Virus record (IMG/VR): IMGVR_UViG_3300029521_000128
Span: 1 to 5,882 of that record
DNA: 5,882 bases
DNA from: a virus
Lineage: Duplodnaviria > Heunggongvirae > Uroviricota > Caudoviricetes
Direction: 5' to 3' (one strand)
The stretch's first letter is position 1. Every line of letters starts with the position of its first letter. The position numbers and the translations under genes were made by a program. Below the pieces are notes generated by a model. The model was not told the origin of the DNA. It worked only from the letters and a program-made list of their open reading frames with translations, and did not search any database. Of this stretch, positions 1 to 5,862 are shown piece after piece.

Positions 1-362
1 CGGGAATATCTACGGCAGCAAGCCAGTAATGGGTTAAGTGATAACAGGTGTCTGGAAATATAGGGGCAAATCCAGGTGGTTGTTGCTTTCCCGTTGCTGA
101 AAAAGAAAACGCCAGACTGTTAGCCGGGTATCAGTTATCTGGAGAAATTTTTAAATACCTCACAATTCAGGCGGTTGACTGTTGTCTGGTTTGCGGGGAG
201 TTTGTTAAAAGAAACTGGCATGGTGAATCCCCCTGTGCGGAGGGGCAATCAGCAACTGGTGTTTTGTCACCGACCCTTATCCTTTCTGTGCGGGTTCAGG
301 TGCTGATACTGAACTCACCGGGAGGCACCCGGCATCATGCAATGGCACATAGCGCCACTCTC
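1..362 (+). promoter_or_regulatory. Structured non-coding leader upstream of a tR'-like terminator; possible late-promoter (pR'/qut-proximal) transcribed region
   Basis: No ORF with an RBS. Several short hairpins (CCCCT/AGGGG near 228-244; GTTCAG/CTGAAC at 294-315; CCGGG/CCCGG at 322-336). The 9-mer ATGGGTTAA at 29-37 matches the initial transcribed sequence of lambda pR' as I recall it. Position is immediately 5' of a strong terminator and upstream of the late genes. Confidence 0.3.
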
Positions 363-398
363 CAGCCCCTCTCCGGAGGGGCTGTTTATATTGATTTT
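363..398 (+). terminator. Rho-independent terminator (tR'-like), perfect 9-bp GC-rich stem plus T-rich tail
   Basis: CAGCCCCTC (363-371), loop TCCG, GAGGGGCTG (376-384), then TTTATATTGATTTT (385-398). Confidence 0.8.
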
Positions 399-3578: not shown

Positions 3579-3654
3579 GCCTGCGCAAGGGACCATCGGT
3601 GTGTGCCGGTGGTCTTTATATTGTTGTGAGCTTCCGGATAACGGGAGACGGGGT

Positions 3655-3870
3655 ATGTACCAGATGGAAAAAATCACAACAGGTGTGTCATACACCACGT
3701 CAGCGGTGGGAACGGGCTACTGGTTCCTGCAGTTGCTGGACAGGGTTTCCCCGTCTCAGTGGGCGGCAATAGGCGTGCTGGGGAGTCTGCTGTTTGGGCT
3801 GCTGACATATCTGACTAACCTGTATTTCAAAATCAGAGAGGACCGTCGTAAGGCTGCACGGGGAGAGTAA
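3655..3870 (+). CDS. S: Class II holin (pinholin), phage 21 S21-like, 71 aa with dual-start motif
   Basis: Translation [71 protein letters not shown]. Two TMDs: a weakly hydrophobic Gly/Thr/Ser-rich TMD1 (SAR-like) and a hydrophobic TMD2, then a charged C-terminus. Met1/Met4 dual start. Strong SD GGGAGACGGGG upstream. Closely resembles the S21 / Stx-phage S holins from memory. Confidence 0.9.
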
Positions 3871-3874
3871 TTCA

Positions 3875-4219
3875 ATGACTCAAAACTATGAACTGATTGT
3901 GAAAGGGATCCGCAATTTTGAGAATAAAGTTACGGTAACTTTAGCGTTACGGGACAAAAAACGCTTTGACGGTGAAATTTTTGACCTGGACATCTCGCTG
4001 GACCGTGTTGAAGGTGCCGCGCTGGAGTTTTATGAGGCAGCAGCCAGAAGGAGCATCAGACAGGTCTTCCTGGATGTTGCTGCCGGGTTATGTGAAGGGG
4101 ATGAGCAGTCGCCGGAAAAGCGCCCCGTAATTTTAGAGGCGCAGGATGTGTTGATAACCTACAGAGGAAAACTACCGGGAATAATTACGGGTTCTCTGAA
4201 GAGTCCGCCGAAATGGTAA
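3875..4219 (+). CDS. Hypothetical soluble protein (114 aa) inserted between holin and endolysin; function unknown (possibly DUF826/ydfR-like by position only)
   Basis: ATG 5 nt after the holin stop, with SD GGGAGAG (3861-3867) at about 9-nt spacing, suggesting co-transcription or coupling with S. E. coli-like codon usage. No TM segment and no recognisable catalytic motif. Confidence 0.6.
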   Translation: MTQNYELIVKGIRNFENKVTVTLALRDKKRFDGEIFDLDISLDRVEGAALEFYEAAARRSIRQVFLDVAAGLCEGDEQSPEKRPVILEAQDVLITYRGKLPGIITGSLKSPPKW

Positions 4220-4457
4220 TTTTACCAGCATATTTTTCATCCAGTAATACAGCAAGCCGCCTGAAAGAGTCTTGTTGTTCCTGAGACCATTTGGGATTGC
4301 ATGATTCAAACTGGATTGATGCCAGCGTTGATTGCATCTGTTCCCTTGGAATTGAGAATGCCAGATATGAGAAGGCGACGGTAAGGGTATTCACGTCTTC
4401 CCGAAGCCTGGAAATGCTGTCGAGCAACTCCTGTAGAGAAATGGTGTTATTGTCCAT
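4185..4457 (-). CDS. Hypothetical protein (90 aa) on the opposite strand, convergent with the 114-aa ORF and overlapping it by 35 bp; function unknown
   Basis: Intact - strand ORF. On the coding strand AGGA lies 7 nt upstream of ATG (...CATGAGGATTATTT ATG GAC AAT...). Candidate -10 TACAAT further upstream. Predicted mostly helical, no TM. Contains some rare codons (AGG, CTA). Confidence 0.5.
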   Translation of the reverse strand: MDNNTISLQELLDSISRLREDVNTLTVAFSYLAFSIPREQMQSTLASIQFESCNPKWSQEQQDSFRRLAVLLDEKYAGKITISADSSENP

Positions 4458-4562
4458 AAATAATCCTCATGATTGTATTGACCTGTTAGCAGCCTGAGGC
4501 AACAGGCTGGAACTGATAAACATATCCAGGGCTCAGAAACCGATAAATCCTGATAAATATCC
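4458..4562. promoter_or_regulatory. Divergent intergenic region between the - strand 90-aa ORF and the endolysin, with direct and inverted repeats; candidate promoter/operator region
   Basis: Near-identical direct repeats CTGATAAACATATCC (4512-4526) and CTGATAAATATCC (4549-4561), plus a third GATAAA at 4542-4547. Inverted repeat CCTGTT (4483-4488) ... AACAGG (4501-4506). For the - strand gene a -10-like TACAAT (complement of 4473-4478); the only -35-like hexamer (TTGCCT) sits 19 nt away, so the promoter is weak or uncertain. Confidence 0.3.
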
Positions 4563-5096
4563 ATGAACGCAAAAATCAGATACGGCCTGTCGGCTGCCGT
4601 TCTGGCGCTGATTGCCGCTGGTGCGCCTGCGCCTGACATTCTCGACCAGTTTCTGGATGAAAAGGAAGGTAACCACACCACGGCATACCGTGATGGCGCG
4701 GGTATCTGGACCATCTGCCGCGGTGCCATCCTGGTGGATGGCAAACCTGTCGTTCCGGGCATGAAGTTGTCGAAGGAAAAATGCGACCGGGTTAACGCCA
4801 TTGAGCGTGATAAGGCGCTGGCATGGGTGGAGAAAAACATCAGAGTGCCATTGAGTGAACCCCAGAAAGCGGGGATCGCGTCATTCTGTCCGTACAACAT
4901 TGGTCCCGGTAAGTGTTTCCCGTCGACGTTTTATAAACGAATTAATGCAGGTGATCGCAGGGGAGCGTGTGAGGCGATTCGCTGGTGGATTAAGGACGGT
5001 GGCAGAGACTGCCGTATCCGCTCAAATAACTGTTATGGTCAGGTATCCCGTCGTGACCAGGAGAGCGCGCTGGCGTGCTGGGGAATCGACAGATAA
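4563..5096 (+). CDS. R: SAR endolysin (signal-anchor-release lysozyme, T4-lysozyme/GH24-like muramidase), R21/Stx-phage R type
   Basis: 177 aa. N-terminal Gly/Ala-rich weakly hydrophobic SAR domain GLSAAVLALIAAGAPAP. Catalytic E-x8-D-x5-T triad in EGNHTTAYRDGAGIWT. C-terminal half (NIGPGKCFPSTFYKRINAGD...WWIKDGG) is typical of lambdoid SAR lysozymes. Confidence 0.92.
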   Translation: MNAKIRYGLSAAVLALIAAGAPAPDILDQFLDEKEGNHTTAYRDGAGIWTICRGAILVDGKPVVPGMKLSKEKCDRVNAIERDKALAWVEKNIRVPLSEPQKAGIASFCPYNIGPGKCFPSTFYKRINAGDRRGACEAIRWWIKDGGRDCRIRSNNCYGQVSRRDQESALACWGIDR

Positions 5097-5394: not shown

Positions 5395-5862
5395 ATGAAC
5401 CGCGTACTGTGCGTGGTCATCATTGCCCTGCTGGTGGCCTGTGGTGCGCTTAGTCTGGGGCTGAATCATTACCGTGATAACGCCATTACCTACAAAGCCC
5501 AGCGCGACAAAAATGTCAGAGAACTGAAGCTGGCGAACGCGGCAATTACTGACATGCAGATGCGTCAGCGTGATGTTGCTGCGCTCGATGCAAAATACAC
5601 GAAGGAGTTAGCTGATGCGAAAGCTGAAAATGAAACTCTTCGCGCTGACGTTGCCGCTGGTCGTAAGCGCCTGCGTATCAACGCCACCTGTCCAGGTCCC
5701 GTGCGTGAAGCCACCGGCACCGCCCGCGTGGATAATGCAACCGGCCCCCAACTGGCAGACACCGTTACACGGGATTATTTCACCCTCAGAGAGCGGCTGA
5801 TGACGATGCAGAAGCAACTGGAAGGGGCGCAGGAATATATCCGTACTCAGTGCCTGAAATAA
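5395..5862 (+). CDS. Rz: Rz i-spanin (inner-membrane spanin subunit), lambda Rz-like
   Basis: 155 aa. N-terminal TM helix [20 protein letters not shown] followed by a coiled-coil periplasmic domain. Long stretches ([65 protein letters not shown]) match lambda Rz as recalled. Confidence 0.92.
5615..5800 (+). CDS. Rz1: Rz1 o-spanin (outer-membrane lipoprotein spanin subunit), embedded in the +1 frame of Rz
   Basis: 61 aa. Signal peptide with lipobox LVVSAC (Cys20). Pro-rich mature region [32 protein letters not shown], very similar to lambda Rz1. SD GAAGGAG (5601-5607) 7 nt upstream. Lies entirely inside Rz in a different frame. Confidence 0.9.

Follow-up and report, generated by a model that had tools for sequence, protein, structure and literature searches.

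Two genes of a lambdoid prophage, ydfR on the + strand (3875-4219) and a 90-amino-acid (aa) gene on the - strand, here called gene B (4185-4457), run into each other tail to tail and end on the same 35 nucleotides (nt), and the question raised by this locus is what such a shared end means. The window is the whole stretch of DNA that was analysed, 5,882 nt from IMG/VR virus record IMGVR_UViG_3300029521_000128 (Caudoviricetes), and corresponds to a 5.9-kb late region of a lambdoid prophage resembling Shiga toxin (Stx) phages, with genes assigned from a list of open reading frames (ORFs) and Pfam matches. A first-pass annotation, made from the letters alone, had taken the overlap as the compact arrangement of a tightly co-evolved pair that allows cross-regulation at the RNA level. 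Of that annotation, the two real coding 3′ ends on shared DNA stand, and the regulatory and co-evolutionary reading is not supported. The overlap is probably the seam of a cargo module, at which the final codons and the stop of gene B are taken over from the end of ydfR, and not a regulatory device.

The ydfR gene begins with an ATG at 3875 and stops with TAA at 4217-4219, and gene B begins with an ATG at 4455-4457 (- strand) and stops with a TAA that is the reverse complement of 4185-4187. The overlap (4185-4219) takes 10 whole sense codons, the stop, and 2 nt from each gene, which makes the earlier count of 11 final codons apiece correct when stops are included. The two frames are aligned at their first codon positions, and the second position of each lies opposite the third of the other, which leaves none of the 63 possible single substitutions silent in both frames. 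YdfR (DUF1327, 114 aa) matches PF07041 with E 7.3e-43 (145.2 bits against a cutoff of 25, residues 1-111) as well as phrog_406, and the identical protein is listed in RefSeq as 'YdfR family protein'. Gene B matches the phrog_2411 profile with E 1.1e-58 over its full length (residues 1-90 on positions 1-90 of 90).

The overlap is real, and its coordinates agree with what GenBank and RefSeq records already annotate. GenBank ON470626 carries the same two coding sequences with the same 35-nt overlap (518-862 on the + strand, 828-1100 on the - strand), as does PP925838. The order holin gene S, ydfR, B, lysozyme gene R was found by megablast in the records of phages vB_EcoS-783R2 (98.9% identity) and Chlobot (88%), both of which annotate a 35-nt overlap, and RefSeq entries of complete Escherichia coli genomes place WP_000193278.1 ('YdfR family protein') and WP_000369850.1 ('hypothetical protein') in the same overlap. 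The convergent arrangement was found in all 94 gene B loci that retain a called ydfR-like ORF at the 3′ end of B, of 96 measured, and the remaining two (L088 and L089) have merely a 23-aa ydfR remnant there. The first-pass annotation had named loci with one frame routinely broken as evidence against its reading; neither frame is interrupted within the overlap in the 96 loci, the remnant having been translated for L088 and L089.

The cargo module and its junction with ydfR

Alignment with module-free loci and base composition together establish a reverse-oriented cargo module of ~300 bp, extending from about 4211/4215 to 4508/4518, with the - strand gene inside it. In local alignments, homology to module-free S-ydfR-R loci such as ON470612 and BP-4795 ends at 4210-4214 and restarts at 4509-4519. 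The GC content (guanine plus cytosine) of the module is 44%, against 53% for S, 55% for R, 55% for Rz, and 49% for ydfR. Among flanking repeats that could mark target duplications, only short matches at chance level were found at the module. A 7-bp inverted repeat, CAGCCTG(AGGCAA)CAGGCTG (4490-4496/4503-4509), lies 35 nt upstream of the B start and ends at the right junction; it is partly kept in phage Chlobot (GCCTG...CAGGC) and may have arisen as a recombination scar or act as an operator or a processing hairpin.

The left junction falls immediately after the conserved core of ydfR, which ends ...LPGIITGSLKSPP at 4210. In a comparison of 260 ydfR loci, gathered with three targeted queries and not an unbiased census, gene B is present in 95 and absent from 165, and all ydfR cores end ...LPG(R/I)ITGSLKxPP, with the residues that follow varying with the module. 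Loci with gene B have the tails KW (87 loci), EC (3), EW (2), E (2), or KR (1) after PP, and loci lacking it have ESQP (82), LA (78), or long extensions of 64-217 aa (5), a perfect association between tail type and the presence of B. The last two codons of ydfR (KW) and its stop belong to the cargo module.

The rest of the overlap has the opposite origin. The 36 nt that precede the junction are shared by both classes of ydfR gene, with and without the module, and in module-free genes their antisense already reads [VEA][EA]SSEN[QP] followed by a stop. The stop of gene B (TAA, 4185-4187, - strand) is the antisense of ydfR Ile-Thr codons (aTT-Acg), and ATT-ACN, hence the antisense TTA, occurs in every ydfR haplotype, with or without B. 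The DNA and the stop thus pre-exist in ydfR genes that have no module, so the last 8-9 codons of gene B and its stop are borrowed from ydfR and not supplied by the module. The B proteins P0043 (85 aa) and P0047 (83 aa) end before this tail, relatives of B at 25-40% identity cannot be aligned after about residue 77, and in distant phrog_2411 members the profile match is confined to positions 1-75/79.

Predicted structure follows the same division. AlphaFold2 places helices at residues 8-35, 38-52, and 59-77 of B, with a mean predicted local distance difference test (pLDDT) score of 73, and gives a pLDDT below 50 to residues 79-90, the tail encoded in the overlap. Gene B is thus predicted to encode a soluble three-helix protein with a conserved domain at residues 1-77 and a disordered tail at residues 79-90.

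Within the overlap, selection looks one-sided. Read in the ydfR frame, the overlap has a pairwise ratio of nonsynonymous to synonymous polymorphism (pN/pS) of 0.43; read in the B frame, it has one of 1.24. Among distinct variants at 4188-4208 in B-carrying haplotypes, 8 of 20 possible variants that are silent in ydfR and change B were seen (E>K, E>V, E>G, A>E, A>V, Q>P, N>S, and N>T), compared with 3 of 13 that change ydfR and are silent in B, and 5 of 30 that change both. The numbers are small and all point in the same direction: the ydfR frame appears to be constrained, and the tail of B appears to drift. The dN/dS-style comparison suggested in the first-pass annotation therefore returns a single constrained frame, with 8 ydfR-silent variants changing B, some of them radically (E>K, E>V, A>E, Q>P), against 3 of the reverse kind. 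By inspection of haplotypes, about four of the ydfR-changing variants (4200-4203) are unique to L088 and L089, where ydfR has been cut to the 23-aa remnant by replacement of its 5′ two-thirds. In those loci (2739-2950 of L088 and L089), the ydfR motif has drifted to GSLTVPP, and B is still 90 aa with the same 35-nt footprint.

These observations suggest how the overlap would have formed. The module joins ydfR right after the motif ...ITGSLKxPP and supplies the last two ydfR codons and a stop. The conserved part of B, predicted to be folded, ends at about residue 77 and, with no stop of its own before the junction, the frame continues into the antisense of ydfR, crosses the last 8-9 codons of the ydfR core, and halts at the TAA opposite ATT-ACN. 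Selection would act on the ydfR frame, and the 8-9 terminal residues of B would be a passenger tail mirroring the ydfR motif. The length of the overlap needs no special account: an antisense frame stays open for 9-11 codons from 0.66-0.73 of start points, whether these are taken in the antisense of ydfR or over the window as a whole, so a run of this length is the chance expectation and is unremarkable. The E. coli clade keeps a constant 35 nt because the stop lies in two strongly conserved ydfR codons. The conservation of both ORFs as genes and the recurrence of their arrangement are not due to chance.

In Stx-type and related prophages, the point just after GSLKxPP of ydfR is a slot for cargo within the lysis cassette. 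In PhiR5_1 (L098, 569-1412), a 211-aa YdfR faces a convergent 86-aa ORF with a 53-nt overlap, and in Stx2-phage 86 (L099, 569-1699), a 268-aa YdfR faces convergent gp06 (104 aa), which lies 9 nt further on. Homology among B, the PhiR5_1 86-aa ORF, and gp06 was rejected (hhalign E 0.085 and 0.49), and the PhiR5_1 ORF, labelled 'DUF1823' in GenBank, scores 15.3 bits for that family, short of the Pfam threshold of 25. Two B carriers have other unusual surroundings. In L094 (1285-2322), B is joined to a different lysis set, Peptidase_M15_4 with two other holin families, which replaces R, and in L093 (1-2427), an IS66 element lies directly upstream of B in a prophage with Shiga-toxin-like RIP/SLT_beta genes upstream of S.

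Several points weigh against reading the overlap as a seam of this kind. The constraint statistics come from 21 nucleotide positions and about 10 haplotypes. Neither a promoter nor a terminator was identified for B, which leaves the comparison with morons, the small autonomous cargo genes found between late-operon genes of lambdoid phages, without one of the defining features of that class. Module-free loci could represent the ancestral state, into which B was inserted, or could have arisen by deletion of B. Gene B also recurs in convergent overlap with a gene ending in the motif I-x-G-[SD]-L-x-x-P-[PIL]-x-x-stop in lineages where B itself is only 38-65% identical. The phage surroundings in these lineages are of no fewer than two clearly distinct kinds, the lysis cassette and the interval between tail genes M and L, and this is more persistence than casual insertion predicts.

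Gene B and rival readings of the overlap

This recurrence supports a rival account, in which the YdfR-type protein and B form a functional two-gene module that moves as a unit, with tail-to-tail packing selected for linkage; an example would be a late-expressed effector with a partner or inhibitor expressed from the prophage. All phage-borne copies of B examined face a late-strand gene with the same C-terminal motif, with overlaps of 7-35 nt. Across lineages the overlaps measure 35 (E. coli clade), 32, 20, 20, 14, and 7 nt, and to this extent the convergent juxtaposition noted in the first-pass annotation is kept in diverged lineages. The 32-nt case is Escherichia albertii (L095, L096), where the partner is ydfR itself in an S-ydfR-R cassette and ends ...ITGSLKTPPE. 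Overlaps of 20 nt occur in L005, an unassigned sequencing-run contig with IS110-family transposase genes nearby (...IIGSLITPPEL), and in L101 (...LTGDILIPLES), where the partner is on the same strand as terminase genes ~1.4 kb away, with unidentified genes between. The 14-nt case, L004 (Citrobacter, ...ITGSLRAPIKL), is a short contig with a membrane-protein-like ORF upstream, and the 7-nt case, L264, L265, L268, and L269 (...IFGDLKKPPSY), lies between tail genes M and L. The convergent overlapping arrangement predates the E. coli clade.

Recurrence of the pair in the S-R lysis cassette, beside the terminase genes of L101, and between tail genes M and L favours a functional bond, as does preservation of the C-terminal motif as a peptide while its codons vary synonymously. 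An activity that might be regulated is also conceivable, given that E. coli K-12 YdfR (103 aa, from the Qin prophage) has been reported to interact with RNase E's catalytic domain, for which residues 1-72 suffice, and to co-purify with RNA, which it may bind (PMC13232886, 2026). That study does not mention B, and no other clue to what the DUF1327 family does was found in the literature.

Other observations count against a functional pair. Gene B is missing from 165 of the 260 sampled ydfR loci and persists beside the 23-aa remnant in L088 and L089. Distant B-like genes (25-30% identity) stand alone in chromosomes, one flanked by dinI and bssS and located downstream of rne and pyrC (L266, 2501-2779), and another beside a heavy-metal P-type ATPase gene (L103, 3001-3294). 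The partners in the four lineages outside the lysis cassette are short ORFs of 61-71 aa and have no significant similarity to YdfR or to one another beyond the ~10 residues of the C-terminal motif (BLASTP E 0.59 or no hit), so they were not accepted as YdfR homologues. The same absences and solitary copies speak against the tight co-evolution assumed in the first-pass annotation. A functional pair is accordingly unlikely, even as the strongest of the alternatives. The Qin prophage of K-12 is not known to carry B. In its fullest form, the pair account would make B and the proteins ending I-x-G-[SD]-L-x-x-P-P-x-x (YdfR and its 61-71-aa relatives) a new two-gene module of temperate enterobacterial phages, arranged tail to tail in late operons, one gene being read in the late direction and the other in the reverse direction, with B perhaps a prophage-expressed partner or inhibitor of an RNase E-linked YdfR activity; this version is a shade less probable again. 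If true, it would offer a handle on two families of unknown function in the lysis region of medically relevant prophages, and the recurrent pairing of phrog_2411 proteins with genes carrying the YdfR C-terminal motif is the residual interest of the locus.

Transcription of the region bears on a second alternative, in which the 35-nt overlap is itself a selected device for mutual antisense control at the RNA level. The position of the convergent overlap is conserved in all 96 gene B loci measured, no spacer or terminator separates ydfR from B, and convergent RNAs that pair at their 3′ ends are known, as in txpA/RatA. In the lambdoid lysis region, R and Rz are expressed only by read-through. With ydfR internal to the late operon, and with no terminator-like site detected from 4219 to 4563, ahead of R, the late transcript would be complementary to B over its full 273 nt and to its leader. 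For this reason the claim that the two transcripts are mutually antisense at their 3′ ends is incomplete, since ydfR lacks a 3′ end of its own at this locus. The 35 nt are not set apart for antisense pairing and contribute nothing specific to it. In addition, the overlap varies among lineages in both length (7-35 nt) and sequence, partnerless ydfR genes have identical DNA at that place, the B frame is unconstrained there, RNA structure downstream of B is not significant (z = -0.70), and an Rfam scan returned no RNA family in or near the overlap. A selected antisense device is therefore improbable, and any RNA-level interference would set the late operon transcript against the whole of B and would not act through the 35 nt.

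With the overlap read as a seam, gene B would resemble a moron, expressed by itself, probably in the lysogen, against late transcription. A consensus scan of the - strand upstream of 4457 found no sigma-70 promoter, and a scan downstream of B (4185) found no terminator. By eye, a candidate TACAAT was noted with TTGCCT 19 nt upstream of it, a spacing beyond the range of the scan; both hexamer positions are kept in phage Chlobot, which has TTGAAT there. The fold of the B leader RNA has z = -1.99.

Both ydfR and B are, on the evidence of their sequences, real genes. A Shine-Dalgarno sequence, GAGGA (4464-4468, - strand), lies 6 nt upstream of the B ATG; the region AGGATTATTTATG is invariant across four diverged loci, and the ATG is kept. 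Homologues of B at E <1e-3 number 62, from Escherichia, Shigella, and Citrobacter, and are mostly exactly 90 aa long. Across 18 distinct alleles of 273 nt, the protein is always 90 aa long, and the 79 codons outside the overlap give a pN/pS of 0.31, with 31, 17, and 49 variable columns at codon positions 1, 2, and 3. When 1.8 billion representatives were scanned in full with HMMER, relatives at 25-40% identity and of 81-97 aa emerged, and these retain the length and helix pattern of B in unrelated contexts; scans of viral contigs with the single distant proteins P0065 and P0063 gave no matches. Some records name the ORF 'ybl58'. Minority alleles are frameshifted or truncated: P0030, P0037, P0049, and P0051 are 94 aa, and P0041, P0045, and P0053 are 50-56 aa. 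The 94-aa forms enter the frame of the window 45-aa ORF at 4172-4309, in which case the overlap with ydfR would be 48 nt.

It is very improbable that B is not a gene, as a chance ORF or the shadow of a 68-aa ORF on the + strand (4291-4497) that would leave no true coding overlap, despite a wobble-aligned + frame that is open for 68 codons in the window with a likewise low pN/pS (0.27), and despite the absence of a Pfam, NCBIfam, PADLOC, or structural match or a promoter for B, because the observed variation, read in the + frame, would fall more on position 2 than on position 1, unlike the 31/17/49 of the - frame, because the + frame stops at differing places in L091, L092, L094, and L004 while the - ORF is always open at constant length, because the + ORF has only a TTG start where B has a conserved Shine-Dalgarno sequence and ATG, because homologues at 25-40% identity keep the length and helix pattern, and because AlphaFold2 models B as three helices. 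The same codon-position pattern, varying stops, and TTG start led to rejection of the 68-aa ORF as a true gene; its low pN/pS was judged to be of the kind that shadow frames show, and the ORF is open in several related loci.

Gene B is widespread. Among 5,426 complete E. coli genomes, 1,117 carry the module, about one in five, where a module call required at least 80% coverage of the query, and ~2,500 show some query match, in the tail of ydfR or in the stretch upstream of R. Its three-helix domain is uncharacterised. No significant Pfam, NCBIfam, or PADLOC match was found for the window protein or its distant members, a PDB sequence-profile search with B gave nothing below E 0.6, a Foldseek search of the AlphaFold2 model against PDB gave no match at E <=0.001, and no paper on the protein ('ybl58', WP_000369850) was found in the literature. 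Mip was considered as a relative and dismissed, with E 0.037 over 15 residues, a chance-level match.

Neighbouring genes of the late region

The + strand genes of the window are, in order, a nanS-p-like esterase, holin S, ydfR, lysozyme R, and Rz, and B is the sole convincing - strand gene. The esterase (1000-2976, 658 aa) is of nanS-p type with DUF1737, SASA, and DUF6645 matches. Upstream of it, at 189-393 (+), Rfam identifies the STnc100 small RNA family (RF02076) over its full length (1-206) with 133.5 bits against a gathering score of 47. The first gene of the lysis cassette encodes a P21-type class II holin, S (3655-3870, +; PF04971, E 1.9e-32). Its mechanical ORF starts with GTG at 3601, the annotated 71-aa form starts at 3655, and homologous records annotate a holin of 216 nt. 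A terminator-like hairpin (3588-3617, +), whose 13-bp stem leads into a T-rich run, lies directly upstream of the holin gene and falls within the GTG-started extension of the S ORF.

The ydfR gene sits between class II holin S and lysozyme R, the same order as in the related records compared. Lysozyme R (4563-5096, +; PF00959, E 1.3e-23) is the next late-operon gene, and Rz (5395-5862, +) was assigned by Pfam. Inside Rz, in another frame, a 61-aa ORF (5615-5800, +) has a lipoprotein-like start and a proline-rich body; it is presumably a candidate for the embedded o-spanin Rz1, which would be a functional same-strand overlap in the same cassette.

Comparison with known systems

Type I toxin-antitoxin and cis-antisense pairs with RNAs that pair at their 3′ ends include txpA/RatA and bsrG/SR4 of Bacillus subtilis. 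Like ydfR and B, txpA/RatA-type pairs are convergent, overlap at their 3′ ends, and are located in prophages. In contrast to them, both partners here are predicted to be soluble proteins with no hydrophobic toxin-like segment, and the maximum Kyte-Doolittle score in a 19-aa window, 0.69 for YdfR and 0.75 for B, is not that of a toxin peptide; PADLOC returned no match for B. There is also no RNA-pairing segment specific to the pair, since the same DNA occurs in partnerless ydfR and other lineages overlap by 7-35 nt. Unlike in type I systems, the overlap is conserved in neither sequence nor length, and one partner is internal to a long operon.

The embedded spanin genes Rz/Rz1 of the lambdoid lysis cassette, whose products are functional partners, likewise yield two proteins from the same DNA in the lambdoid lysis region. 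Rz1, however, is on the same strand and fully embedded, whereas ydfR and B overlap in antisense at their ends, over 35 nt, with constraint in one frame only.

Morons are a closer match. One example of the class is lambda bor, which follows Rz immediately on the opposite strand, and a related phage record annotates bor in that position. Like them, B is a small reverse ORF inside a late operon, with sharp junctions, patchy presence, and GC below that of its neighbours, in a slot that also hosts alternative, unrelated cargo; presence or absence with sharp junctions and a base composition distinct from the flanks were both found. It differs from them in having no identified promoter or terminator of its own, in a frame that is not self-contained, with 8-9 codons and the stop borrowed, and in a persistent neighbour with one C-terminal motif.

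Tail-to-tail overlaps in bacteria generally arise by loss or lack of a stop, with 3′ extension to the next in-frame stop of the neighbour. The case of ydfR and B resembles these in a non-conserved and probably disordered extension of B over the constrained 3′ end of ydfR, in a length compatible with chance, and in a single constrained frame. It differs from the usual convergent overlap in that the stop comes from two strongly conserved codons of the partner and the overlap lies at the boundary of a recombination module. Read as a seam, the overlap would carry little biological weight and would counsel caution against inferring regulation from every compact overlap, and it would be an instructive case of a convergent overlap arising where recombination joins two modules, with a tail and a stop borrowed from the conserved codons of a neighbour.

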